Sequence record: PZ154895.1
Reading direction: 5' to 3' (one strand)
Length of the DNA: 64,000 nucleotides
DNA from: a phage
How positions within the stretch are numbered: position 1 is the first letter of the stretch; each line of letters starts with the position of its first letter. The position numbers and the translations under genes were made by a program. The notes beneath the pieces were generated by a model that was not told the origin of the DNA, did not search any database, and saw nothing but the letters and a program-made list of their open reading frames with translations. Below are positions 12,142 through 47,148 of this stretch, one piece after another.

Positions 12142-12165
12142 AAACCAAAACAATGAGGATATTAA

Positions 12166-13368
12166 ATGAAAGTATGCATTTTTATGGCTCGAGGTCTTGA
12201 AGGTTGTGGCGTAACTAAATTTTCTCTTGAGCAACGTGATTGGTTTATTAAAAATGGTCATGAAGTAACTTTGGTTTATGCTAAAGATAAATCATTTACT
12301 CGTAATTGCGCACATGATTATAAGTCATTTTCAATTCCGGTTTTATTGGCAAAAGAATACGATAAAACACTTAAGTTGGTAAATGATTGTGATATTCTAA
12401 TTATCAATTCAGTTCCTGCTACTTCAGTAGAAGAAGACACTATTAATAACTATAAAAAAATTATTGATAACATTAAACCTTCAGTTCGTGTTGTAGTTTA
12501 TCAGCATGACCATTCTTCTCTTTCTTTGCGCCGAAATTTGGGATTAGAAGAAACTGTTCGTCGAGCTGATGTTATTTTTAGTCATTCTGATAATGGTGAT
12601 TTTAATAAAGTTCTGATGAAAGAATGGTATCCGGAAACTGTTTCTCTGTTTGATGATATTGAAGAAGCACCGACCGTATATAACTTTCAGCCTCCTATGG
12701 ATATTGCGAAGGTTCGATCAACTTACTGGAAAGATGTTTCTGAAATTAACATGAATATCAACCGTTGGATTGGTCGTACTACTACATGGAAAGGCTTTTA
12801 TCAGATGTTTGATTTTCACGAAAAACATCTTAAACCTGCAGGACTAAGTACTATTATGGAAGGTCTGGAACGTTCTCCAGCGTTCATTCCTATTAAAGAA
12901 AAAGGAATTCCATACGAGTATTATCGTCTTCATCAAGTAGACCAAATTAAAATTGCTCCTAATTTGCCAACGCAAATTCTCGACCGTTATGTAAATAGCG
13001 AAATGCTTGAACGCATGAGTAAATCCGGATTTGGTTATCAGCTGAGTAAATTAGATAAAAAATATCTACAACGTTCTTTAGAATATACTCATCTCGAGCT
13101 TGGTGCATGCGGAACAATTCCAGTATTTTGGAAATCTACTGGCGAAAATTTAAAATTCCGTGTTGATAATACTCCGTTAATTTCTCATGATAGCGGTATC
13201 GTTTGGTTTGATGAAAATGACATGGAATCAACATTTGAGCGTATTAAAGAACTGTCATCTGACCGAGCTCTTTATGACCGTGAACGCGAAAAAGCTTATG
13301 AATTTTTGTATCAGCATCAAGATTCAAGCTTCTGCTTTAAAGAACAGTTTGACATTATTACAAAATAA
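12166..13368 (+). CDS. a-gt: DNA alpha-glucosyltransferase
   Basis: 400 aa; near-identical to T4 AGT as recalled; GAGGA SD; MotA-box promoter upstream; terminator downstream. Confidence 0.93.
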   Translation: MKVCIFMARGLEGCGVTKFSLEQRDWFIKNGHEVTLVYAKDKSFTRNCAHDYKSFSIPVLLAKEYDKTLKLVNDCDILIINSVPATSVEEDTINNYKKIIDNIKPSVRVVVYQHDHSSLSLRRNLGLEETVRRADVIFSHSDNGDFNKVLMKEWYPETVSLFDDIEEAPTVYNFQPPMDIAKVRSTYWKDVSEINMNINRWIGRTTTWKGFYQMFDFHEKHLKPAGLSTIMEGLERSPAFIPIKEKGIPYEYYRLHQVDQIKIAPNLPTQILDRYVNSEMLERMSKSGFGYQLSKLDKKYLQRSLEYTHLELGACGTIPVFWKSTGENLKFRVDNTPLISHDSGIVWFDENDMESTFERIKELSSDRALYDREREKAYEFLYQHQDSSFCFKEQFDIITK

Positions 13369-13388
13369 AGGGCTTCGGCCCTTTAGCT
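13369..13388 (+). terminator. rho-independent terminator after a-gt
   Basis: GGGCTTCGGCCC + TTT. Confidence 0.6.
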
Positions 13389-13407
13389 TTATACGGAGTT
13401 TGATATA

Positions 13408-13548
13408 ATGATATTTCTTGGATATGTGATACTTTTTCTAGCGTTTTATTTGTTCACCAGAGCATGTTGGATTGGGTTCTTTAGTACTCCAGATGGATTT
13501 ATTTCAATAATTTTATTTTGCATTTCAATGACGGTTCTTGATATATGA
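13408..13548 (+). CDS. small hydrophobic peptide (46 aa)
   Basis: ATG after GGAG; stop overlaps start of next gene (ATGA). Confidence 0.35.
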   Translation: MIFLGYVILFLAFYLFTRACWIGFFSTPDGFISIILFCISMTVLDI

Positions 13549-14168
13549 AAAAATATATAACTTATTTAACAATATATAGTGGAGATAAACTTCCTCCTTT
13601 TTATATTGGATCTACATCTTTAGACAGGCATTTAGCCGGATATCATGGATCAGTTTTATCTAAAAAGTATAAGAAAATTTATAATGAAGAACTTTCAAAT
13701 AACCCACATTTATTTGATTCATGCATTTTAGATGAATTTGATACACGCGAAGAAGCTATTAAATGCGAGCTATATTATCAACGTTTGCATGATGCGGTTA
13801 AAAATCCATTATTCTTTAATATGTCATATGCTGCTCCAAAAGGTTCATTTGGAAGAGATATTAAAGGACAAAATCATCCATTATATGGTTCTCATAATTG
13901 TAAAGGAAACATACATTCACATGACCCATTAACAGGAAAATCTGCCTTTTTACCGTATATTCCAGAAGGTTATGTAAAAGGAAGGTCAAATAAATTTAAA
14001 GCTTCATCACATAATAAAGGTAAAAAATGGTATAATAACGGAGTTAAGCAAATGTTATGTCATGAACCTCCTGGTCCTGAATGGACAAAAGGAAAAATTA
14101 AAGAACTAGTTTCAAAAGCAGCTAAATTAGGATGGAAAAGACACCATGAAAATACTAAACTTGGGTGA
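13545..14168 (+). CDS. GIY-YIG family homing endonuclease-like protein (seg-like)
   Basis: N-terminal YLTIY...(10 aa)...FYIGST with downstream R and E (EEAIKCELYY); basic C-terminal half; 3' end overlaps gene 47 by 23 nt. Confidence 0.6.
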   Translation: MKKYITYLTIYSGDKLPPFYIGSTSLDRHLAGYHGSVLSKKYKKIYNEELSNNPHLFDSCILDEFDTREEAIKCELYYQRLHDAVKNPLFFNMSYAAPKGSFGRDIKGQNHPLYGSHNCKGNIHSHDPLTGKSAFLPYIPEGYVKGRSNKFKASSHNKGKKWYNNGVKQMLCHEPPGPEWTKGKIKELVSKAAKLGWKRHHENTKLG

Positions 14169-15165
14169 TTGGCATTTAGGCGTTAAAGCTGATGATGAAT
14201 GGATTCGCGGTATTCAAATTGATGGAATTAAGCAAGCGATAGAATATTCTAAGAAAAATGGAATTACTGTATGGATTCAATACGGTGATATTTTTGATGT
14301 ACGAAAAGCGATCACGCATAAAACTATGGAGTTTGCCCGTGAAATAGTTCAAATGCTTGATGCCGCTGGAATCACATTACATACTATTGTAGGAAATCAC
14401 GATCTCCACTATAAAAATGTAATGCATCCAAATGCTTCTACTGAGCTTTTGGCTAAATATCCTAATGTTAAAGTATATGATAAGCCTACTACAGTAGATT
14501 TTGACGGATGTTTGATTGATTTAATTCCTTGGATGTGTGAAGAAAATACCGGTGAAATTCTTGAACACATCAAAACTTCATCTGCTTCTTTTTGTGTCGG
14601 TCACTGGGAGCTGAATGGATTTTATTTTTATAAAGGAATGAAATCTCACGGTCTTGAACCTGATTTCCTTAAGACTTATAAAGAGGTGTGGTCTGGTCAC
14701 TTCCATACTATCTCTGAGGCTGCTAACGTCAGATATATTGGGACACCATGGACACTAACTGCAGGTGACGAGAATGACCCTCGTGGGTTCTGGGTGTTTG
14801 ATACAGAAACAGAACGAATGGAATTTATTCCAAACAACACTACCTGGCATCGTCGAATTCAATATCCATTTAAGGGAAAAATTGACTATAAAGATTTTAC
14901 AAATCTATCAGTGCGTGTTATAGTAACTGAAGTAGACAAAAATCTAACGAAGTTCGAATCTGAACTAGAAAAAGTTGTGCATTCATTACGAGTTGTGTCA
15001 AAGATTGATAACTCTGTCGAGTCAGATGATAGTGAAGAAGTTGAAGTTCAATCTCTTCAGACATTGATGGAAGAATACATTAATGCAATTCCAGACATCA
15101 CTGATTCTGACCGTGAAGCACTTATTCAATATGCAAATCAGTTATATGTAGAGGCAACACAATGA
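14146..15165 (+). CDS. 47: recombination endonuclease subunit gp47 (Mre11/SbcD-like)
   Basis: 339 aa; matches T4 gp47; phosphoesterase motifs GDxH/GNHD. Confidence 0.93.
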   Translation: MKILNLGDWHLGVKADDEWIRGIQIDGIKQAIEYSKKNGITVWIQYGDIFDVRKAITHKTMEFAREIVQMLDAAGITLHTIVGNHDLHYKNVMHPNASTELLAKYPNVKVYDKPTTVDFDGCLIDLIPWMCEENTGEILEHIKTSSASFCVGHWELNGFYFYKGMKSHGLEPDFLKTYKEVWSGHFHTISEAANVRYIGTPWTLTAGDENDPRGFWVFDTETERMEFIPNNTTWHRRIQYPFKGKIDYKDFTNLSVRVIVTEVDKNLTKFESELEKVVHSLRVVSKIDNSVESDDSEEVEVQSLQTLMEEYINAIPDITDSDREALIQYANQLYVEATQ

Positions 15166-15612: not shown

Positions 15613-17297
15613 AGAATTTTAAACTAAACCGAGTTAGGTATCAAAATATAATGTCAGTAGGTGGAAATCCTATTGACATTCAACTAGATAAGGTTCAAAA
15701 AACTCTTATTACTGGGCGAAATGGTGGTGGTAAGTCTACTATGTTAGAAGCCATCACATTTGGGCTTTTTGGCAAGCCATTTCGTGATGTAAAGAAAGGT
15801 CAATTAATAAACAGCACAAATAAGAAAGAACTTTTAGTTGAACTGTGGATGGAATATGATGAGAAAAAGTACTATATCAAAAGAGGACAAAAACCAAACG
15901 TTTTCGAAATCACCGTTAACGGTACACGTCTTAATGAATCTGCCAGCAGTAAAGATTTCCAAGCAGAATTTGAACAGCTTATCGGAATGTCATATGCCAG
16001 TTTCAAGCAGATTGTTGTCCTTGGTACAGCAGGGTATACCCCTTTCATGGGTTTGTCGACCCCTGCGCGAAGAAAGCTTGTGGAAGACCTGCTCGAGGTA
16101 GGAACATTAGCTGAAATGGATAAGCTTAATAAAGCACTAATACGTGAATTAAATTCACAAAACCAAGTGCTTGATGTTAAAAAAGATAGTATTATCCAAC
16201 AAATTAAAATATATAATGATAACGTTGAACGCCAGAAAAAATTAACTGGTGATAACCTTACTCGTCTGCAGAACATGTATGATGATTTGGCAAAAGAAGC
16301 TAGAACGTTAAAATCGGAAATAGAAGAAGCTAATGAAAGATTAGTTAATATTGTTTTGGATGAAGACCCGACTGATGCATTTAATAAAATCGGTCAAGAA
16401 GCATTTTTAATTAAATCAAAAATTGACTCGTATAATAAAGTCATTAATATGTATCACGAAGGTGGATTATGTCCAACCTGTTTGTCACAATTAAGTTCCG
16501 GTGATAAAGTTGTTTCTAAAATTAAAGATAAAGTTTCTGAATGCACGCATTCATTTGAACAGCTTTCAACACATCGTGATAATTTAAAAGTTCTTGTTGA
16601 TGAATACCGAGATAATATTAAAACCCAGCAGACGTTGGCAAATGATATTCGCAATAAAAAGCAATCCTTAATCACGACGGTAGATAAAGCTAAAAAAGTT
16701 AAAGCGGCTATAGAAAAAGCATCATCTGAGTTTATTGACCATGCTGATGAAATAGCACTGCTTCAAGAAGAACTTGATAAAATTGTTAAGACAAAAACTA
16801 ATTTAGTAATGGAAAAATACCACAGAGGAATTTTGACTGATATGCTCAAAGATTCTGGTATTAAAGGTGCTATTATTAAAAAGTACATTCCATTATTTAA
16901 TAAGCAGATTAACCATTATCTTAAAATAATGGAAGCGGATTATGTGTTTACATTAGATGAAGAATTTAATGAAACAATTAAATCCCGTGGTCGTGAAGAT
17001 TTTAGTTATGCTTCATTTAGTCAAGGTGAAAAAGCACGAATTGATATTGCTCTTTTATTTACTTGGCGTGATATTGCTGAAAAAGTTTCAGGTGTTAAAA
17101 TAAGCTGTTTATTTCTTGATGAAGTATATGACGGTGCATTTGATGCTGAAGGTATTAAAAATGTAGCTAAAATTTTAGATGGTTTGAAGGATACCAACTT
17201 CTTCATAATTTCGCATAAAGACCATGACCCACAAGAATATGGTCAGCATATTCAGATGGAAAAAGTTGGTAGATTTAGTTTAGCTAAGATTAGCTAG
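15609..17297 (+). CDS. 46: recombination endonuclease subunit gp46 (Rad50/SbcC-like ATPase)
   Basis: 562 aa; Walker A GRNGGGKST; CPTC zinc hook; matches T4 gp46; GTG start. Confidence 0.93.
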   Translation: MKNFKLNRVRYQNIMSVGGNPIDIQLDKVQKTLITGRNGGGKSTMLEAITFGLFGKPFRDVKKGQLINSTNKKELLVELWMEYDEKKYYIKRGQKPNVFEITVNGTRLNESASSKDFQAEFEQLIGMSYASFKQIVVLGTAGYTPFMGLSTPARRKLVEDLLEVGTLAEMDKLNKALIRELNSQNQVLDVKKDSIIQQIKIYNDNVERQKKLTGDNLTRLQNMYDDLAKEARTLKSEIEEANERLVNIVLDEDPTDAFNKIGQEAFLIKSKIDSYNKVINMYHEGGLCPTCLSQLSSGDKVVSKIKDKVSECTHSFEQLSTHRDNLKVLVDEYRDNIKTQQTLANDIRNKKQSLITTVDKAKKVKAAIEKASSEFIDHADEIALLQEELDKIVKTKTNLVMEKYHRGILTDMLKDSGIKGAIIKKYIPLFNKQINHYLKIMEADYVFTLDEEFNETIKSRGREDFSYASFSQGEKARIDIALLFTWRDIAEKVSGVKISCLFLDEVYDGAFDAEGIKNVAKILDGLKDTNFFIISHKDHDPQEYGQHIQMEKVGRFSLAKIS

Positions 17298-18006
17298 GTT
17301 TATATTTACAGTTATCATTATGCCATCTTGATAAATTTCCGAAAGTGGTAACTTTACCACAATGGACGCAAGTACCAGTCTTTTCAGTTTTCTTGCGTCC
17401 ATTTGGATTTTTCTTGCAGAAATTTCTATGCGCTGCGATAACGCATTTCTTGCCTATCATTCCACAGAATTCGCAGGATGTTTCTTCAAGAACGATTGCT
17501 TTAAGCCCGTTTGAGATATTATTTCTGTGTTCTTTAGACATTGGTGGTCTAACTTTAGGATTAGGGTGATTTGGACAGTTATCAAAATGCCAACGATTCA
17601 TATTCCCGCTTAATCCAGACTTACCGCAATGAGGACAAGTTAGTCTTGCTTTATTAGCTACTGCATCAGACATTTTCTTTCGTGTCTCCTGGGAGAATTC
17701 TTTGTTCTTTTCTATTTCCCAGAGTTTACGACGAATCCAACCGAAAGTTTTATTGTTGCGTTTAGCGTATTTCGTGGAAACTGTCATCATGTTAGCAGCA
17801 TAGACTAATTTTGGTTCAGAAGGATAAATTTTTACTAAAAGTTGATGAGCTACATAGTGCTCTTCTGGCGTTAAATCTACTAAGTTTGAAGCATCATCAC
17901 TACCGTTTAAACAGCGTGGTATAATGTGATGAGATTCAGTATAGCAATCAAGTTTTCGAGATTTAGCATTAGAGATTAACTTTTCATAAATTAGTTTATA
18001 ATTCAT
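17290..18006 (-). CDS. HNH homing endonuclease with three C-terminal zinc-finger-like repeats
   Basis: HNH core ESHHIIPR...SNLVDLTPEEHYVAH; three CxxC...W(H)xDNC repeats; AAGGA SD; only minus-strand gene inside the plus-strand replication cluster; 3' end overlaps gene 46 by 8 nt. Confidence 0.75.
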   Translation of the reverse strand: MNYKLIYEKLISNAKSRKLDCYTESHHIIPRCLNGSDDASNLVDLTPEEHYVAHQLLVKIYPSEPKLVYAANMMTVSTKYAKRNNKTFGWIRRKLWEIEKNKEFSQETRKKMSDAVANKARLTCPHCGKSGLSGNMNRWHFDNCPNHPNPKVRPPMSKEHRNNISNGLKAIVLEETSCEFCGMIGKKCVIAAHRNFCKKNPNGRKKTEKTGTCVHCGKVTTFGNLSRWHNDNCKYKPS

Positions 18007-18057
18007 AACATATCCTTTTGATACAGCGAGTGATAAACATATTTATACGGAGGAACT

Positions 18058-25555: not shown

Positions 25556-26296
25556 ATGATTAACGATTATATGACAGTTGAAGAAATCCGTCTTGATTTG
25601 GGTCTTGCATTAAAGGAAAAAGATTTCGTAATTGATAAAACCGGTGTTAAAACTATTGAAATTATTGGTGCATCATTTGTAGCAGATGAACCTTTTATTT
25701 TTGGCGCTCTTAATGATGAATACATTCAACGTGAACTTGAATGGTATAAGTCTCAAAGTCTGTTTGTTAAAGATATTCCAGGTGAAACGCCGAAGATTTG
25801 GCAGCAGGTAGCATCTTCTAAAGGCGAAATTAACTCGAATTATGGTTGGGCCATCTGGTCAGAAGATAACTATGCCCAGTATGATATGTGTTTAGCTGAA
25901 CTTGGTCAAAATCCTGATTCTCGACGCGGTATCATGATTTATACTCGTCCATCCATGCAGTTTGACTACAATAAAGATGGTATGTCAGATTTCATGTGTA
26001 CGAATACAGTACAGTACCTGATTCGTGATAAGAAAGTCAATGCAGTAGTAAGCATGCGTTCAAATGACGTAGTCTTCGGATTCCGTAATGATTATGCGTG
26101 GCAAAAATACGTACTAGATAAATTAGTATCTGATTTGAATGCAGGTGATTCAACTCGTCAGTATAAAGCAGGTTCCATTATATGGAATGTCGGGAGCCTT
26201 CATGTGTATTCCCGTCATTTTTATTTGGTTGACCATTGGTGGAAAACTGGCGAAACTCATATTGCGAAAAAAGATTATAACGGTGAGTGGAAATGA
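25556..26296 (+). CDS. 42: dCMP hydroxymethylase gp42
   Basis: 246 aa; near-identical to T4 gp42. Confidence 0.95.
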   Translation: MINDYMTVEEIRLDLGLALKEKDFVIDKTGVKTIEIIGASFVADEPFIFGALNDEYIQRELEWYKSQSLFVKDIPGETPKIWQQVASSKGEINSNYGWAIWSEDNYAQYDMCLAELGQNPDSRRGIMIYTRPSMQFDYNKDGMSDFMCTNTVQYLIRDKKVNAVVSMRSNDVVFGFRNDYAWQKYVLDKLVSDLNAGDSTRQYKAGSIIWNVGSLHVYSRHFYLVDHWWKTGETHIAKKDYNGEWK

Positions 26297-27135
26297 TTCA
26301 ATTCGTAATTCCAAGCTATCAACGCGGAGGGGCAGTTTCTGCCCTTGATATGTTTCCGACTGATTATGAACCTCATATTGTAGTACGTGAACACGAAGAA
26401 AAAGCTTATTATGACGCTTACGGGTCTAGAGCTAAAATTATAACTATTCCTGATGATGTTAATGGAATTGCTGGTACTCGTAAAGCAATTACTGATATGT
26501 ATGCAGGTCAACGAATCTGGATGATTGATGATGATACTACTATTCGTATGAGTTCAATGCGAAAGAAAGATGATCGTCGCTGTGTAGATAAAATTAATCA
26601 ATTAACTCGTGAACAGTTCTATGAATTGATTCAATACGTGGAAGATGCCATGGATTGCGGGTATTATCACGGCCATGCTCGTCTACCTATTTTTAAAATT
26701 ACTTCATCTTGGGGTAATTATCGTGAAAATTCATACGGATTCACGAATACCTGGTATGATTTAGGAAAACTTACAACAGAACAAATTGGGTATGGAAAAA
26801 TTGATTTATGCGAAGATATGTATGCATTTCTCAATTTAATTAATCAAGGTTATCCGCATTTGGCCTTGTTCAAATATCTAGTTGTATCTGGAAAAGCGCA
26901 AGCTCCTGGCGGATGTAGTTCAATTCGTAGTAATTCAAAACATAATAGAGCTCTTGAGCAAATCAATAGAGAGTTTCCAGAGCAAGCTCGTTGGAAAACT
27001 TCTAATATTGAAAAACGAAAATCGTTGGGTGAAGAAGACGAGCCATTAAAGGTTCTTCGCATGTGTGTTTCGCGCAAAGAAAAGTCAGAAGCATTTCATA
27101 AGTTTAATGCTATTCATCCAATAGCAGTTGATTAA
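26293..27135 (+). CDS. ba-gt: putative DNA glycosyltransferase with DXD motif; candidate beta-alpha-glucosyltransferase
   Basis: Occupies the b-gt slot between 42 and uvsX but does not resemble T4 BGT; motif WMIDDDTTI; ATGA overlap with gene 42. Confidence 0.6.
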   Translation: MIQFVIPSYQRGGAVSALDMFPTDYEPHIVVREHEEKAYYDAYGSRAKIITIPDDVNGIAGTRKAITDMYAGQRIWMIDDDTTIRMSSMRKKDDRRCVDKINQLTREQFYELIQYVEDAMDCGYYHGHARLPIFKITSSWGNYRENSYGFTNTWYDLGKLTTEQIGYGKIDLCEDMYAFLNLINQGYPHLALFKYLVVSGKAQAPGGCSSIRSNSKHNRALEQINREFPEQARWKTSNIEKRKSLGEEDEPLKVLRMCVSRKEKSEAFHKFNAIHPIAVD

Positions 27136-27212
27136 TGCCTAAATTTATTGTGTTATAATTACCCTATCTTTAACCAGTGAGGAAAATATAATGATGCCTA
27201 TGGAAAAAATGA

Positions 27213-28394
27213 ATGTCTATTGCAGATTTAAAATCCCGTTTGATTAAAGCTTCCACTTCTAAAATGACTGCTGAACTGACTACATCTAAATTCTTTAATG
27301 AAAAGGATGTAATCCGTACAAAAATCCCAATGCTTAATATCGCTATTTCCGGTGCGATTGATGGTGGAATGCAGTCTGGTTTAACCATTTTTGCAGGTCC
27401 TTCTAAACACTTTAAATCAAATATGTCTTTGACTATGGTTGCGGCGTATTTGAACAAATATCCTGATGCGGTTTGTTTATTCTATGATAGCGAATTTGGT
27501 ATTACTCCAGCTTATTTGCGATCCATGGGAGTTGACCCGGAACGAGTAATTCATACACCAATTCAGTCAGTTGAACAGCTGAAAATTGATATGGTGAATC
27601 AGCTTGAAGCTATTGAGCGCGGTGAAAAGGTTATTGTATTCATCGACTCAATCGGTAATATGGCTTCTAAGAAAGAAACGGAAGATGCCTTGAATGAAAA
27701 ATCTGTGGCAGATATGACTCGTGCTAAATCACTGAAGTCATTATTCCGTATTGTTACTCCTTATTTTAGTATCAAAAACATTCCATGTGTTGCGGTTAAC
27801 CATACAATTGAAACAATTGAAATGTTTAGTAAAACCGTGATGACAGGTGGTACAGGCGTAATGTATTCGGCTGATACTGTATTCATTATCGGTAAGCGTC
27901 AGATTAAAGATGGTTCTGATCTTCAGGGGTATCAATTTGTTCTAAATGTAGAAAAATCTCGTACCGTCAAAGAAAAAAGTAAATTCTTTATTGATGTTAA
28001 ATTTGACGGTGGTATCGATCCTTATTCTGGATTGTTAGATATGGCTCTTGAATTAGGATTTGTAGTAAAACCTAAAAATGGCTGGTATGCTCGTGAATTT
28101 CTTGATGAAGAAACCGGCGAGATGATTCGCGAAGAAAAATCTTGGCGCGCAAAAGATACCAACTGTACTACATTCTGGGGTCCTTTATTTAAGCATCAAC
28201 CATTCCGAGATGCTATTAAACGCGCTTATCAGTTGGGTGCTATTGATAGTAATGAAATTGTTGAAGCTGAAGTTGATGAATTAATTAACTCAAAGGTTGA
28301 AAAATTTAAATCTCCAGAAAGTAAAAGTAAATCAGCAGCTGATTTAGAAACTGACCTAGATCAGTTAAGTGATATGGAAGAATTTAATGAATAA
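27213..28394 (+). CDS. uvsX: RecA-like recombinase UvsX
   Basis: 393 aa; near-identical to T4 UvsX; Walker A GPSKHFKS. Confidence 0.95.
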   Translation: MSIADLKSRLIKASTSKMTAELTTSKFFNEKDVIRTKIPMLNIAISGAIDGGMQSGLTIFAGPSKHFKSNMSLTMVAAYLNKYPDAVCLFYDSEFGITPAYLRSMGVDPERVIHTPIQSVEQLKIDMVNQLEAIERGEKVIVFIDSIGNMASKKETEDALNEKSVADMTRAKSLKSLFRIVTPYFSIKNIPCVAVNHTIETIEMFSKTVMTGGTGVMYSADTVFIIGKRQIKDGSDLQGYQFVLNVEKSRTVKEKSKFFIDVKFDGGIDPYSGLLDMALELGFVVKPKNGWYAREFLDEETGEMIREEKSWRAKDTNCTTFWGPLFKHQPFRDAIKRAYQLGAIDSNEIVEAEVDELINSKVEKFKSPESKSKSAADLETDLDQLSDMEEFNE

Positions 28395-30670: not shown

Positions 30671-30712
30671 GTTTACAAGCTGATAGAGTTGTGTTATAGT
30701 AATTCTATCAGC
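30671..30712 (+). promoter_or_regulatory. early promoter with stem-loop around -10 (PeSL-like)
   Basis: GTTTAC, TATAGT, inverted repeat GCTGATAGA/TCTATCAGC. Confidence 0.55.
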
Positions 30713-30731
30713 TAATCGCGGAGAAAAGAAA

Positions 30732-30986
30732 ATGATGCTAGTTAATAGAGAATATCAGTTTAAATCAGAAGAAGATTTGGAAAAATTCGCGAGTGGTTGT
30801 GAACTGAATAGACGCACAGCTAAAGTCATAGGATTAAAACCCTTTACAGTTCTAGATTGTGAAGTTTCTAAATTCCGCAGAGGGTGTTCTATTAGCAGTC
30901 ATGCTCTGGTTGATGGGAACACATTTTTCTTTGTTTTTAGCGTCAGAGAACTTTTATTGATTAACGAACTTGAGGAAATAAAATAG
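30732..30986 (+). CDS. hypothetical protein (84 aa)
   Basis: ORF track; promoter/stem-loop upstream. Confidence 0.45.
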   Translation: MMLVNREYQFKSEEDLEKFASGCELNRRTAKVIGLKPFTVLDCEVSKFRRGCSISSHALVDGNTFFFVFSVRELLLINELEEIK

Positions 30987-31040
30987 TTTACTTTTGTTTT
31001 AAACATGTTATTATAGACCTATCAAAACAAACGAGTAAAT
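30986..31040 (+). promoter_or_regulatory. early promoter with flanking inverted repeat (PeSL-like)
   Basis: GTTTAC, TATTAT, TTTTGTTTT/AAAACAAA inverted repeat. Confidence 0.5.
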
Positions 31041-31050
31041 GGAGAATAAA

Positions 31051-31230
31051 ATGTCTAAAGTATCAGGTTATCAATTATTAACACAAGAACAACGTTCAGA
31101 GATGGATTCTTTACAAGAACGGTGTCAGCATAGAAATAACGCACTTGATTCATTTTTATTAATTGAATATGAAAACTTGTGCTCTAGACTTGAAAAAGAA
31201 TATGTTCATCAACATGGAGGAGAAGAATGA
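31051..31230 (+). CDS. hypothetical protein
   Basis: ORF track 31039..31230; ATG at 31051 has GGAG SD. Confidence 0.4.
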   Translation: MSKVSGYQLLTQEQRSEMDSLQERCQHRNNALDSFLLIEYENLCSRLEKEYVHQHGGEE

Positions 31231-31333
31231 AACTGAAATCACCAATTATTGTAATTTGTCTGTTTGCTTCTACTAGTGTTTACTTTTGTTGAAAATTGAG
31301 ATACTATAAACATAAACTACTGAGGAGATTATC

Positions 31334-33390: not shown

Positions 33391-33461
33391 ATGTCCTCCT
33401 TATTGCTTTATATATTTATTGTATAATTAATCTACTAACCCATGAATTGAAAGGAAAAATA

Positions 33462-33980
33462 ATGGCATACTTTAATGAATGTTCACAACTGATCGAAGGC
33501 GCTGATAAAGCTCAAAATGAATACTGGGATATTCTCGGTGATGAAAAAGACCCACTACAGGTTATGCTTGATATGCAGAAATCTTTGCAGGTTCGTTTAG
33601 CTAAAGATAAACCTGAATATAACCGTCATCCTGATGATTTGGCTACTGCAGGCGAAGTTGTTGATTGGCTGCGTAATCAAAAAGATTATATTGACGATGA
33701 ATTCCGTGAACTTCTGACTTCTCTTGGCGGCATGAGCAATGGTGAAAAAGATGCATCTGCTGTATGGAAGCCTTGGAAAGCTCAACATGGTGAACGCCGT
33801 GAAACTCTAATTACTGATTTGTCTCCGCAAGATCAGTTGGAAATTAAATTCGAAATGATTGATATTCTTCATTTCGTTCTGAACATGTTCCAAGGTCTTG
33901 GTCTTACGGCTGAAGAAATCTTTAAACTTTATTATCTGAAAAATGCTGAAAACTTCGCTCGTCAAGACCGAGGTTATTGA
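33462..33980 (+). CDS. 56: dCTPase/dUTPase gp56
   Basis: ORF track 33369..33980; internal ATG at 33462 gives MAYFNECSQLIEG... as in T4 gp56. Confidence 0.9.
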   Translation: MAYFNECSQLIEGADKAQNEYWDILGDEKDPLQVMLDMQKSLQVRLAKDKPEYNRHPDDLATAGEVVDWLRNQKDYIDDEFRELLTSLGGMSNGEKDASAVWKPWKAQHGERRETLITDLSPQDQLEIKFEMIDILHFVLNMFQGLGLTAEEIFKLYYLKNAENFARQDRGY

Positions 33981-34180
33981 TGGCTCGTTTAAATAAACGC
34001 CAGCTTAAGAAAGCCCGCAAGAAACGTATTGACCAGCTATTTAAAAATTATGATAAGGAGCTCGTATGTGAGCTCTTATCTAATCAGCTCCGCAAAGCTC
34101 ACACAATTAAAACTGGACATATACCAGGTAAGTGGGTGCATGAAGAAGCCTTAAAATTAATTATAGAGCATTCAAAATGA
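33980..34180 (+). CDS. hypothetical basic protein
   Basis: ORF track 33977..34180 (TTG); ATG at 33980. Confidence 0.4.
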   Translation: MARLNKRQLKKARKKRIDQLFKNYDKELVCELLSNQLRKAHTIKTGHIPGKWVHEEALKLIIEHSK

Positions 34181-34386
34181 AATTTGATTTTTATGCATGG
34201 CAAAAAGCCGGTAGACCTGCTAGTCGAGCATTTGGTTCTGATGGATATAATATTAGAGCCCATTGGAAGTTTAATGCTCCAGCCGATTATTCTCCGGTAA
34301 TTATTAATGGTGATGTTGTTATATTAACTAAAATTGGATATTTTAACGTTCCGCGAGAATTTATTATAAATAATCATGTAATTTAA
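34177..34386 (+). CDS. hypothetical protein (69 aa)
   Basis: ORF track; ATGA overlap. Confidence 0.4.
   Translation: MKFDFYAWQKAGRPASRAFGSDGYNIRAHWKFNAPADYSPVIINGDVVILTKIGYFNVPREFIINNHVI
34365..34372 (+). promoter_or_regulatory. late promoter TATAAATA upstream of soc
   Basis: TATAAATA about 30 nt upstream of soc ATG (approx.). Confidence 0.5.
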
Positions 34387-35300: not shown

Positions 35301-35786
35301 ATGGAAGCGATTTTGTTTGAAATGTATATTAGCAGTGATAGCATGGCGTTTGCTAAAGATATTCCAATTACAGTAGCAGTAATGATTGATAAAAGATATG
35401 ATAATAACATGTATCTAGTAGAAGATTTTATTTCAATGCCAGTTCCAGAAGATGTTGAAATAAAACTTAAAAAGATCGGAATTATTGAAACTGTACGAAA
35501 TTCTCCATTTATGTCAATTCAAGCATTTACTAAATCTAACTATATTGATGTTGCTGAATCATATTATAACAATAAACCATTGCCATTATATTCATATGAT
35601 TCAATATATGACTGGAAAATAGATAAGGGAAATAAATTTATAATTACAGAAGAAAATGCACTATCATATTTTATTACCTCTTTATGGAATAATTTAAATC
35701 CAAATTTACTCAAAATTCATAAATTTGACGATGCTCCTACTGTTGTTTTAGGTAAAACAAATGAAAGTTCTGAAGAAAATGCTTGA
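35301..35786 (+). CDS. hypothetical protein
   Basis: ORF track 35289..35786 (TTG); ATG at 35301 after GAGGA. Confidence 0.5.
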
Positions 35787-35964
35787 ATGGTTCAGTAGAC
35801 CAAACTCAATGTACATTGACGATGGTTGGGTTGAACAAGCAAATAAAGAAATGCAGAACGAATCAGAAGAATGGATGAAATCAATGATTAGCGTTGAGAA
35901 AGAAAAGAAATTAGAACGCTCAGCGCTTAAATTGATGAGAGACATCTATGGGGATAAATCATGA
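35761..35964 (+). CDS. hypothetical protein (67 aa)
   Basis: ORF track; overlaps upstream gene; start uncertain. Confidence 0.35.
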
Positions 35965-36125
35965 ACAAAGATATAACGTTAGAAGAGGCTAAAGCTAAAG
36001 CAAATGAAGCATTGGATTTGCTTCTTAAAATTGGCAGTAAAATGATGGAAGAAAATGAGAAATATATCCAGGAAAACAAAATTCCTGACGGCCCATTAGT
36101 AGGCAAGAGGAAATCACATGATTGA
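35961..36125 (+). CDS. small protein (54 aa), below ORF-track cut-off
   Basis: ATGA overlap with upstream stop; ends overlapping next start. Confidence 0.3.
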
Positions 36126-36588
36126 AGTAGCAAAACATTATTCAATAGAATTTATGTCTAAAGAAGGTAAATCAGTAAATACACTTGATAAAAAGTGCTC
36201 ATTAATTATTCCTTTAGCAGAAAATCCGGATATTTTAATTAAAGATATAAAAGAAAGAAAATATCCAGAAAATGTTATTCTAATTATAAAGCATACTGAA
36301 GATATTTTGCAGAATACTGATTCACCATTTTCTTCTTCTGAAGCTTTAACTATTAAAGGCTATAAAAGAGCTCATGAATATGGTCTTTTTGACCTGTTTG
36401 AAGACGATAAAGTTAAATTAGCGAGTCAACCTTCTAAAAGTAAAACATTCATTATTGAAGATATTAAAGATATAAATGCATTTGTTAAGATGGTCTGGGC
36501 TCATTTTGATGTTGGACTGCGCTGGAGAATGTCCGAAGAAGAAAGAAAAATTATTGAAGCTAATCGTTATTTTGGTTTTTATCGCTAG
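36118..36588 (+). CDS. hypothetical protein (156 aa)
   Basis: ORF track. Confidence 0.5.
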
Positions 36589-45330: not shown

Positions 45331-47148
45331 ATGATTAAGAATGAAATTAAAATTCTGAGCGATATTGAACATATCAAAAAGCGTAGCGGCATGTACATTG
45401 GTTCTTCTGCTAATGAAATGCATGAGCGCTTTCTGTTTGGTAAATGGGAAAGTGTTCAGTATGTACCTGGTCTTGTTAAGCTTATTGATGAAATTATCGA
45501 TAACTCAGTAGATGAAGGTATTCGTACTAAGTTTAAATTCGCAAATAAAATTAATGTTACTATTAAAAACAATCAAGTAACAGTTGAAGATAACGGTCGT
45601 GGTATTCCGCAGGCGATGGTTAAAACACCTACTGGTGAAGAAATTCCTGGTCCAGTTGCTGCATGGACTATTCCAAAAGCAGGTGGTAACTTCGGTGATG
45701 ATAAAGAACGCGTCACTGGTGGTATGAACGGTGTTGGTTCTAGTTTAACTAACATTTTTTCTGTGATGTTTGTCGGTGAAACTGGTGATGGTCAAAATAA
45801 TATTGTAGTTCGTTGTTCAAACGGCATGGAAAATAAATCGTGGGAAGATATTCCTGGAAAATGGAAAGGAACTCGCGTTACTTTCATTCCTGATTTTATG
45901 TCATTTGAAACTAATGAGCTATCTCAAGTTTATCTTGACATTACACTGGATCGTCTCCAGACACTTGCAGTAGTTTATCCTGATATTCAATTTACATTTA
46001 ATGGTAAAAAGGTTCAGGGTAATTTTAAGAAATATGCACGCCAATATGATGAACATGCTATTGTTCAAGAACAAGAAAATTGTTCTATTGCGGTCGGTCG
46101 TTCACCTGATGGTTTTCGTCAATTAACATACGTCAATAACATTCATACTAAGAATGGTGGCCATCATATTGACTGTGTTATGGATGATATTTGTGAAGAC
46201 CTTATTCCACAAATCAAACGTAAATTCAAAATTGATGTAACTAAAGCACGTGTTAAAGAATGCTTGACTATCGTTATGTTTGTTCGTGATATGAAAAACA
46301 TGCGATTTGATTCTCAAACTAAAGAGCGTTTGACTTCTCCATTTGGTGAAATCCGTAGTCATATTCAGCTTGATGCTAAAAAGATTTCACGTGCTATTTT
46401 GAATAATGAAGCAATTTTAATGCCAATTATTGAAGCTGCATTGGCTCGTAAATTGGCGGCAGAAAAAGCAGCTGAAACTAAAGCAGCTAAAAAGGCCTCT
46501 AAAGCTAAGGTTCATAAACATATTAAAGCGAATCTTTGTGGTAAAGATGCTGACACTACTCTTTTCTTGACTGAGGGTGATTCTGCTATCGGATATCTTA
46601 TTGATGTTCGTGATAAAGAACTTCATGGCGGTTATCCATTGCGTGGTAAAGTTCTCAACAGTTGGGGTATGTCATATGCTGATATGCTTAAAAACAAAGA
46701 ACTGTTTGATATTTGCGCAATCACTGGATTAGTTCTTGGTGAAAAAGCCGAAAACTTGAATTATCATAATATTGCTATTATGACTGATGCTGACCATGAT
46801 GGTCTAGGAAGCATTTATCCTTCTCTGCTCGGATTTTTTAGTAATTGGCCAGAATTGTTTGAACAAGGAAGAATTCGCTTTGTCAAAACTCCTGTAATCA
46901 TCGCTCAGGTCGGTAAAAAACAAGAATGGTTTTATACAGTCGCTGAATATGAGAGTGCCAAAGATGCTCTACCTAAACATAGCATCCGTTATATTAAAGG
47001 ACTTGGCTCTTTGGAAAAATCTGAATATCGTGAGATGATTCAAAATCCAGTATATGATGTTGTTAAACTTCCTGAGAATTGGAAAGAGCTTTTTGAAATG
47101 CTCATGGGAGATAATGCTGACCTTCGTAAAGAATGGATGAGCCAGTAG
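45331..47148 (+). CDS. 39: DNA topoisomerase II large (ATPase, GyrB-like) subunit, unsplit
   Basis: 605 aa from ATG 45331 (track starts at GTG 45328); N-terminus matches T4 gp39; one continuous ORF. Confidence 0.93.
   Translation: MIKNEIKILSDIEHIKKRSGMYIGSSANEMHERFLFGKWESVQYVPGLVKLIDEIIDNSVDEGIRTKFKFANKINVTIKNNQVTVEDNGRGIPQAMVKTPTGEEIPGPVAAWTIPKAGGNFGDDKERVTGGMNGVGSSLTNIFSVMFVGETGDGQNNIVVRCSNGMENKSWEDIPGKWKGTRVTFIPDFMSFETNELSQVYLDITLDRLQTLAVVYPDIQFTFNGKKVQGNFKKYARQYDEHAIVQEQENCSIAVGRSPDGFRQLTYVNNIHTKNGGHHIDCVMDDICEDLIPQIKRKFKIDVTKARVKECLTIVMFVRDMKNMRFDSQTKERLTSPFGEIRSHIQLDAKKISRAILNNEAILMPIIEAALARKLAAEKAAETKAAKKASKAKVHKHIKANLCGKDADTTLFLTEGDSAIGYLIDVRDKELHGGYPLRGKVLNSWGMSYADMLKNKELFDICAITGLVLGEKAENLNYHNIAIMTDADHDGLGSIYPSLLGFFSNWPELFEQGRIRFVKTPVIIAQVGKKQEWFYTVAEYESAKDALPKHSIRYIKGLGSLEKSEYREMIQNPVYDVVKLPENWKELFEMLMGDNADLRKEWMSQ

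Follow-up and report, generated by a model that had tools for sequence, protein, structure and literature searches.

A predicted seg-like GIY-YIG homing endonuclease gene at the 47.1–47 junction of a Tequatrovirus

The 207-aa open reading frame (ORF) immediately upstream of gene 47 is very probably a free-standing gene for a homing endonuclease of the GIY-YIG/seg type, carried on a 601-bp cassette that sits exactly at the 47.1–47 junction of a Tequatrovirus. It was found in a stretch of phage DNA of 64,000 nucleotides (PZ154895.1), referred to here as the window. The phage is a Tequatrovirus, and its locus was 99% identical to those of Shigella phage SH-1 and Escherichia phage SA20RB. The 207-aa protein was identical to SA20RB_057 (UIU28003.1), and dozens of deposited genomes already contain the gene, labelled generically or wrongly. 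Judged by its sequence, the protein would be expected to act as an endonuclease and to home. No description of an endonuclease at the 47.1/47 locus was found in the literature, nor were reports of cleavage or homing by this protein or its close homologues.

Organization of the locus and boundaries of the insertion

The a-gt gene (12166-13368; Pfam AGT, E 2e-236) is followed by a GC-rich, terminator-like hairpin (AAAGGGCTTCGGCCCTTT, 13366-13385, detected by a terminator scan), which lies 5' of the 47.1 unit. The same hairpin is present in T4, and the annotation of the 99%-identical SA20RB lists it as a rho-independent terminator. A putative T4 middle-promoter-like site, GCTT-N14-TATAAT (13386-13409, plus strand), known from a consensus-similarity annotation in SA20RB, comes next, and its -10 box overlaps the ATG of 47.1 as read from the sequence. 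Gene 47.1 (13408-13548, plus strand) encodes a hydrophobic, predicted membrane protein of 46 aa, which matched phrog_6693 with an E value of 1.5e-31 and occupies the same place as gp47.1 of T4; its identity was also given by T4 NP_813808 and the SA20RB annotation. The original prediction had described this ORF as a hydrophobic micro-ORF to which the endonuclease gene is translationally coupled. It is present and hydrophobic, but it is the resident gene 47.1 and not part of the insertion. The predicted endonuclease gene occupies 13545-14168 (plus strand), as defined by the ORF, the T4 alignment, the homologues and the fold. Its ATG (13545-13547) shares an ATGA with the TGA of the 46-aa ORF, and this overlap of start and stop, noticed at the outset, was confirmed at 13545-13548. 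Gene 47 (14146-15165, plus strand) encodes the Mre11/SbcD-like nuclease subunit (Pfam Metallophos; PHROG SbcD-like, E 6e-142), and the predicted 23-nt overlap of the two genes holds at 14146-14168. The site had been placed between a-gt and gene 47; the cassette is indeed 5' of gene 47, but it actually lies between 47.1 and 47.

Pairwise alignment of T4 with the window showed a single gap of 601 bp with ATGAAAA at both edges, in agreement with blastn, and the flanks of the gap were 90-95% identical to T4. Because 7 nt are ambiguous, the inserted 601 bp can be placed at either 13545-14145 or 13552-14152, and T4 coordinates 36441-36447 were matched twice by the window, once by each ATGAAAA copy. 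The left copy (13545-13551, plus strand) carries the ATG that overlaps the stop of 47.1, and the right copy (14146-14152, plus strand) is the start of gene 47 and lies within the last codons of the endonuclease ORF (..H-E-N..). The T4 sequence at the junction reads ...GATATATGAAAATTTTAAATTTAGG... and that of the window reads ...GATATATGAAAA[AATAT...CACC ATGAAAA]TACTAAACTTGGG..., and therefore the 7-nt ATGAAAA stands at each edge of the cassette. In T4, 47.1 (36444-36584) overlaps gene 47 (35428-36447) by 4 nt through the same ATGA, with nothing between them. As read from the aligned junctions, the coupled ATGA start serving gene 47 in T4 is taken over by the cassette. The compact footprint of a mobile insertion that had been proposed is thus recognizable as a clean 601-bp insert, but the ATGA coupling was inherited from the 47.1/47 arrangement of T4 and not evolved by the element. 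The homologue alignment showed that this copy starts with M-K-K-Y-I-T and most orthologues with M-K-Y-I-T; the extra lysine would be consistent with formation of the junction at the ATG-AAA of gene 47.

No GGAG-type Shine-Dalgarno sequence precedes the ATG of the 207-aa ORF (upstream sequence GACGGTTCTTGATAT), as the original prediction had stated. Some copies outside Tequatrovirus (FBB1, AV109) possess their own AAGGAG Shine-Dalgarno, and a terminator-like hairpin with a TATAAT box is located just upstream of the SEA1 and FBB1 copies. No late promoter (TATAAATA) was found within kilobases of the locus, and sigma-70-like sites near it were not above the shuffled expectation, so that an independently transcribed cassette was rejected. 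The sole promoter-like signal 5' of the endonuclease gene was the GCTT-N14-TATAAT at 13386-13409. With no promoter of its own and only this middle-promoter-like site upstream, the endonuclease is therefore most likely expressed from the 47.1-47-46 transcripts, and it would most likely be made at a low level by termination-reinitiation at the ATGA. At the other end, gene 47 starts 23 nt before the endonuclease stop, behind a weak GGATGGAAAAG purine stretch from the cassette, and its new upstream context, ...TTAGGATGGAAAAGACACC-ATG, is cassette-supplied. Initiation of gene 47 may depend on the weak GGA/AGGA purines that the final cassette codons contain, on ribosomes already translating the endonuclease ORF, or on both.

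Insertion polymorphism and the linked allele of gene 47

The population was surveyed by junction-specific megablast queries against 50,697 GenBank phage records, with the endonuclease 3' end plus the gene 47 start as the filled-junction query. The filled junction was found in 68 records and the empty junction in 433 (of about 501 related records), so that the element is present in about 14% and missing from T4 and about 86% of its close relatives; these counts contain GenBank/RefSeq duplicates as well as phages related by descent and therefore do not represent independent events. Base-by-base checking established the empty site in T4, T2, T6, PD112, sb4, UGKSEcP1 and six IMG/VR contigs, and the filled site in SA20RB, fPS-90 and ERS-1, as well as in KNP1 with an internally shortened copy. 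Within IMG/VR, a collection with few coliphage T-evens, the protein-based search for relatives gave no confirmed ones, and the DNA-pattern search for the empty site gave six loci only. The view that T4 has no seg gene at this site proved right, since the 47.1/47 junction was uninterrupted in T4, T2 and T6. Comparison of the junction across T-evens, which had been set beforehand as a check, revealed an insertion polymorphism; with 68 filled and 433 empty records, an orthologue is therefore not present in all T-even phages including T4.

The ORF was intact in the filled-junction genomes examined and was annotated as a single CDS in most listed records, with KNP1 and KNP5 (internal deletions) and two 194-aa cluster members as the exceptions. 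Its dN/dS was 0.08-0.21 against five orthologues with 61-97% amino acid identity, and the endonuclease protein is therefore maintained by selection.

These distributions bear on the reading that the ORF is an ancestral resident of the gene 47 region of Tevenvirinae, which was deleted in T4 and most Tequatroviruses and is not currently mobile. Homologues do occur at the same position in many genera, the polarity is not given by presence and absence alone, and a precise deletion between the ATGAAAA repeats would recreate the T4 junction. However, an ancestral gene accords poorly with the sporadic occurrence within Tequatrovirus (68 filled against 433 empty) and with the few Klebsiella phage records that have the element. 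The Tequatrovirus copies are 96-100% identical, and yet their flanks form a mosaic of haplotypes that loses linkage with the element within about 50 nt; moreover, the upstream neighbours differ between genera, and homing enzymes are what the characterised members of the family (the T4 Seg proteins and I-TevI) have proved to be. We therefore consider an immobile ancestral gene improbable. Since gain and loss both belong to the normal cycle of homing endonucleases, it is only partly a rival of the mobile cassette.

A short stretch of gene 47 immediately adjoining the cassette was linked to the element. Codons 3-6 read ATA CTA AAC TTG in the window versus ATT TTA AAT TTA in T4, which makes four synonymous changes within 10 nt (14154-14163, plus strand; T4 alignment and record counts). 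Only positions 14154, 14155, 14160 and 14163 co-segregated with the element in an alignment of 17 sequences, and none of the 47.1 polymorphisms (13440-13485) or deeper gene 47 sites did so in the same alignment. Haplotype blocks switch within about 50 nt on either side of the cassette. A long co-conversion tract was ruled out because no other flanking polymorphism tracks the element.

The allele ATACTAAACTTG was found in 62-67 of the 68 filled sites (62 exact and 5 with one mismatch) versus 9 of the 433 empty sites, about 424 of which were T4-type or other. The one filled site with the T4-type allele, and the only combination of this allele with the element, was ERS-1, whose record is flagged UNVERIFIED_ORG. 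The allele without the element was carried by SHFML-26 (two records), UGKSEcP1/P2, BCPEco_001, BCPSen_003, PBM-1, Ec_YwIITB1 and EPIMAM01, so that the empty site exists with ATACTAAACTTG (as in SHFML-26 and UGKSEcP1) or with ATTTTAAATTTA. RB14, which has an empty junction, showed an intermediate allele, and CTN is the usual codon for Leu4 in other genera. The linked allele could shield carriers from cutting their own DNA; alternatively, it could be a short donor scar co-converted with the cassette. Both are candidate explanations based on the association. ERS-1 and the nine allele-only records are the exceptions to the idea of an immunity allele.

A tentative and rather unlikely extension is that the cassette is hard to lose and that the changes in codons 3-6 are a true cleavage-immunity allele that also circulates alone. 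The cassette would then have captured the only translational start signal of gene 47, namely the ATGA coupling to 47.1, and the new start of gene 47 would be buried in the 3' end of the cassette, so that gp47 would need translation of the endonuclease ORF. The cassette could be viably lost only by a deletion running exactly from one ATGAAAA to the other, and the nine allele-only records would represent "resistant empty" sites.

Genomic position of the relatives and the presumed homing target

All of the nine full-length homologues examined (9/9) were located immediately 5' of gene 47, in most cases with an overlap at its start. The nine loci, this window included, represent at least seven genera of the Tevenvirinae plus one metagenomic contig without classification. 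The overlap with the start of gene 47 was 23 nt in SEA1 (Gelderlandvirus) and Aeromonas phage L9-6, 17 nt in KP185 (Jiaodavirus), 14 nt in FBB1 (Roskildevirus), QL01 (Dhakavirus) and the ENA T4-like contig, and 1 nt in AV109 (Mosigvirus), and a gap of 121 nt separated the two genes in Serratia phage LC53. Wherever the overlap was at least 14 nt, the end of the endonuclease (..H/N-E-N..stop) was read from the ATGAAAAT of gene 47. The upstream neighbours varied by locus (47.1, a-gt, a-gt.2-like or other small ORFs) and gene 47 was always downstream; therefore, the constant partner is the 5' end of gene 47. Its codons 7-12 (GDWHLG) form metallophosphoesterase motif I, and codons 7-10 (GDWH) lie at 14164-14175 (plus strand) of the window. 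Conserved sequence coding for an active site is a typical target of homing endonucleases (PMC2988022). The homing target region would thus be the 5' end of gene 47 with the Mre11 motif I.

In a mixed infection, the C-terminal half of the protein would bind at or near the gene 47 5' end of an endonuclease-less phage, and the GIY-YIG domain would make a double-strand break in that genome. Recombinational repair from the carrier genome would then give the recipient the cassette and a short stretch of flanking DNA. Protection of the carrier itself would come from the interrupted site, from the four synonymous changes at codons 3-6, or from both.

Homologues sharing only the N-terminal part, with NUMOD3 repeats, were found directly 5' of the gene for the topoisomerase large subunit in Yersinia phage TG1 (neighbour annotated gp60) and Escherichia phage Bp7 (gene 39). 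These gene-39 paralogues (TG1 gp009 and Bp7 EpBp7_0131) are about 55-70% identical to the 207-aa protein over the first ~110 aa, and they are likewise free-standing genes whose 3' ends run a few nt into the essential gene that follows. However, their C-terminal half consists of NUMOD3 repeats, whereas that of the 207-aa protein contains SegE-like motifs. One nuclease domain with two tails and two neighbouring genes fits the modular design of GIY-YIG enzymes, and the TG1 and Bp7 paralogues provide comparative evidence for a choice of target by the C-terminal domain.

The strict association of each type of C-terminal domain with one essential gene (47 or 39) is a signature of target-specific homing, and it argues against a domesticated GIY-YIG nuclease that serves the phage in exclusion, DNA degradation, or local amplification or recombination and is not selfish. 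Such a role would agree with the purifying selection on the ORF and with its operon, which it shares with the recombination nuclease genes 46 and 47. Seg-type enzymes can also benefit their host; for example, SegB is reported to promote the amplification of anti-defence loci (PMC13096335). However, a gene useful to its phage would not be expected to be confined to about 14% of close relatives while the rest have clean empty sites, and we regard domestication as distinctly improbable.

Protein family, predicted fold and implications

The 207-aa ORF had 173 homologues at E<=1e-3 (best 1e-137) and matched phrog_10820 with an E value of 2e-93; by these comparisons it is a genuine gene and not a chance ORF. 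The protein begins with MKKYITYLTIYSGDKLPPFYIGSTS... and contains YLTIY and FYIGST followed by R28, R68 and E75, so that the GIY-YIG-type N-terminus with downstream R and E, as originally described, is present. This N-terminal GIY-YIG domain (about aa 1-100; 13545-13844, plus strand) is marked by TIY at 9-11, YIG at 20-22, R28, GYHGS at 32-36, R68, E75 and N92. The homologue alignment showed a conserved N-terminal domain of about 100 aa with Y7, T9, Y11, Y20-I21-G22-S23, G35, S39 and R68. Among 44 diverse homologues, E75 and N92 were invariant, Y7, Y11, Y20, G22 and R68 were nearly so, and Y11, Y20, I21 and G22 were at least 90% conserved. The first motif is a variant, TIY (aa 9-11), with T in place of G, and the second is YIG (aa 20-22). 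In the MAFFT alignment, E75 and N92 aligned with E75 and N90 of I-TevI and with the E and YN(M/L) of the Seg proteins, and GYHGS aligned with the seg hallmark DGYMGSG, giving the shared motif GY(M/L/H)GS. The column of R28 held K or R in most homologues and Q or N in a few, and the R27 region of I-TevI was gapped in the alignment.

A search with the GIY-YIG profile, which had been named as a check, gave a borderline result: Pfam PF01541 was matched with an E value of 9e-4 (aa 4-84 on profile positions 2-74 of 78), but the score of 19.9 bits was below the gathering cut-off of 22.6. The same profile was matched at E<0.01 by 15 of the 44 homologues. A PDB sequence-profile search with the 44-sequence alignment gave no match at E<=1, and NCBIfam had no model for the endonuclease or for 47.1. 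The AlphaFold model built on the homologue alignment had pLDDT values of 91-98 for residues 1-95, with TIY and YIG in strands 4-11 and 19-25 (pLDDT >95). Foldseek searches of the PDB with the model returned 1LN0 and 1MK0, the catalytic domain of I-TevI, as the best matches (probability 1.0-0.99, TM 0.6 on the target length). The modelled N-terminal domain is thus shown to have a GIY-YIG-like alpha/beta fold in which the catalytic Glu and Asn are conserved.

The C-terminal half (about aa 101-207; 13845-14165, plus strand), presumed to be the DNA-binding region, was modelled mostly at pLDDT 50-60, with a beta-hairpin at aa 161-172 reaching 86-89. It contains two ...P(E)G(Y/W)xKG(R/K) motifs and WYNNG, as in SegE. 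A seg-type DNA-binding character had been proposed for it; it resembles the corresponding half of SegE, but no Pfam domain, DNA-binding domains included, was detected in aa 101-207.

For comparison, the T4 seg proteins were translated from the T4 record. The family profile matched SegE best, with 40.7 bits over residues 2-199, nearly the full length of both proteins, followed by SegG (24.3 bits), SegC (22.3 bits) and, more weakly, the other seg proteins. This match, together with the I-TevI-like fold, upholds the assignment to the GIY-YIG/seg-like enzymes. SegE (205 aa versus 207 aa here) shares the N-terminal Y..YIG..GY(L/H)GS..E..YNM core and, in two copies, the C-terminal WxNNG...P(D/E)G(F/W/Y)xKG(R/K) motifs, and it is also free-standing and immediately 5' of a gene of DNA metabolism. 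The activity of SegE is documented in the literature. The pairwise similarity of the two proteins is weak, however (phmmer 14 bits), and segE is located between hoc/inh and uvsW, whereas the presumed target here is gene 47 and not uvsW. In contrast to SegE, the 207-aa ORF lacks start signals of its own and shares bases with the gene on either side. SegG, SegA-D and SegF have the GIY-YIG N-terminal domain in common with the 207-aa protein, but their sequences are distant and none of these T4 genes is located at 47.1/47; segA and segF of T4 are missing from the phage of the window. The seg genes are known as intergenic cassettes present in some T-evens and missing in others, and they cause localised marker exclusion (PMC2988022). 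I-TevI is encoded in the td intron, and no counterpart of its Zn-finger linker or its C-terminal HTH was detected in the 207-aa protein; the identity between the two was about 17-19%, and the R27 region aligned poorly.

The degenerate GIY motif (TIY) and the sub-threshold Pfam score could also be taken as signs of a catalytically dead, decaying remnant, kept only since translation of gene 47 depends on its 3' end. The internally deleted copies of KNP1 and KNP5, and the position of the gene 47 start and its upstream purine stretch within the ORF, point the same way. However, the strictly or nearly conserved residues E75, N92, Y7, Y11, Y20, G22 and R68 in the 44 homologues, the low dN/dS of 0.08-0.21 over the whole length and not the 3' end alone, and the full-length ORF in nearly all carriers make decay highly improbable. 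The label "HNH endonuclease" of phrog_10820, a name copied in many RefSeq records, can be dismissed with near certainty, since no Pfam HNH match was found at E<=1, no H-N-H motif was present, and the fold and profile matches were all to GIY-YIG proteins. One UniRef cluster member is already named "GIY-YIG domain-containing protein".

The cassette is an uncharacterised addition to a well-known class of elements, at a locus unoccupied in T4, and it leaves the understanding of how homing elements work unchanged. With it, 47.1/47 becomes the ninth seg-type locus in the T-even catalogue of free-standing homing endonucleases, and the widespread annotation as "HNH endonuclease" or "hypothetical protein" is corrected to GIY-YIG. 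The family offers a natural experiment, with a single nuclease domain joined to two C-terminal domains at two essential genes (47 and 39), and with a 4-nt candidate immunity allele that occurs both with and without the element. If the tentative reading of a hard-to-lose cassette and an immunity allele were true, it would provide a sequence-defined system for the co-evolution of a homing endonuclease and its target next to the Mre11 motif I. Where Tequatroviruses undergo recombination, phage-therapy cocktails being one example, marker exclusion and mosaicism would be expected at this locus.

Variation at the gene 47 junction

The four-nucleotide allele, a set of synonymous changes in gene 47 codons 3-6 that is linked to the seg-like GIY-YIG endonuclease, was also found with an empty 47.1/47 junction, in which 47.1 and gene 47 are directly coupled as in T4, in nine phage records, including UGKSEcP1 (L010 1533-1560). 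These nine may represent resistant empty sites or the products of precise loss. RB14 carried an intermediate gene 47 allele.

Atypical carriers of the endonuclease were observed too. ERS-1 (L013 ~1500-1560; UNVERIFIED_ORG, 175 kb) combined the endonuclease with the T4-type gene 47 allele, and the copy in KNP1 (L011 1501-2066) and KNP5, both unverified records, had an internal deletion spanning about 124 aligned positions. The oddities of these three phages may reflect either true variation or errors of assembly.

Putative endonucleases at other sites

GIY-YIG paralogues were located directly upstream of the topoisomerase II large-subunit gene in TG1 (L023 1998-2681) and Bp7 (L024 1998-2678), overlapping that gene by 8 nt in both phages. 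They share the GIY-YIG domain with the window endonuclease but differ from it in having NUMOD3 repeats at the C terminus. Record coordinates at about 5 kb suggested that several Klebsiella phages have a paralogue at the matching position.

Within the window, gene 46 and 45.2 are separated by a 238-aa ORF (17290-18006) encoded on the opposite (minus) strand, at a position where T4 has only about 70 nt. The ORF contains the HNH-type motif HHIIPR...NLVDLTPEEHYVAH as well as Cys-rich repeats, shares the last 8 nt of its 3' end with the end of gene 46, and has the late-promoter consensus TATAAATA (18040-18047, minus strand) just 5' of it. This ORF probably encodes a further free-standing (mob-like) homing endonuclease.

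The interval between 46.1 and gene 46 was occupied in T6 by a gene annotated as "homing endonuclease" (L015 2996-3089) and at the same position in T2 by an ORF annotated as "hypothetical protein" (L014 2996-3089), whereas 46.1 adjoins gene 46 directly in the window and in T4; 46.1/46 is therefore a further site within this operon at which endonuclease occupancy is polymorphic.

Differences from T4

Between gene 42 and uvsX, a 282-aa ORF (26287-27135, plus strand) replaces b-gt and segA of T4 and is unrelated to what T4 has there; from its position, we take it to be a candidate that may encode a beta-alpha-glucosyltransferase of the T2/T6 type. Nothing in the window (~33401-33422) corresponds to a T4 stretch of about 900 bp (16825-17725) that includes the dam methyltransferase gene, and the adjacent gene 56, with 77% identity to T4, is the most divergent block of the comparison. 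The homologues of T4 61.4 and sp are separated by roughly 600 bp of inserted DNA specific to the window (30676-31277), which contains two small function-unassigned ORFs (30732-30986, 84 aa; 31039-31230, 63 aa).

Comparison with T4 also showed that the window phage is without the nrdD intron with I-TevII, mobC, mobB, segA, segF, and the mobA/60.1 segment, the differences falling at ~6078, ~7366, ~12150-12175, 26278-27225, ~33943-34365, and ~46748-46813. In T4, mobB is positioned between a-gt.2 and a-gt, and the mobA/60.1 segment splits genes 39 and 60; both are missing here. The window phage has few of T4's own homing endonucleases and carries different ones.
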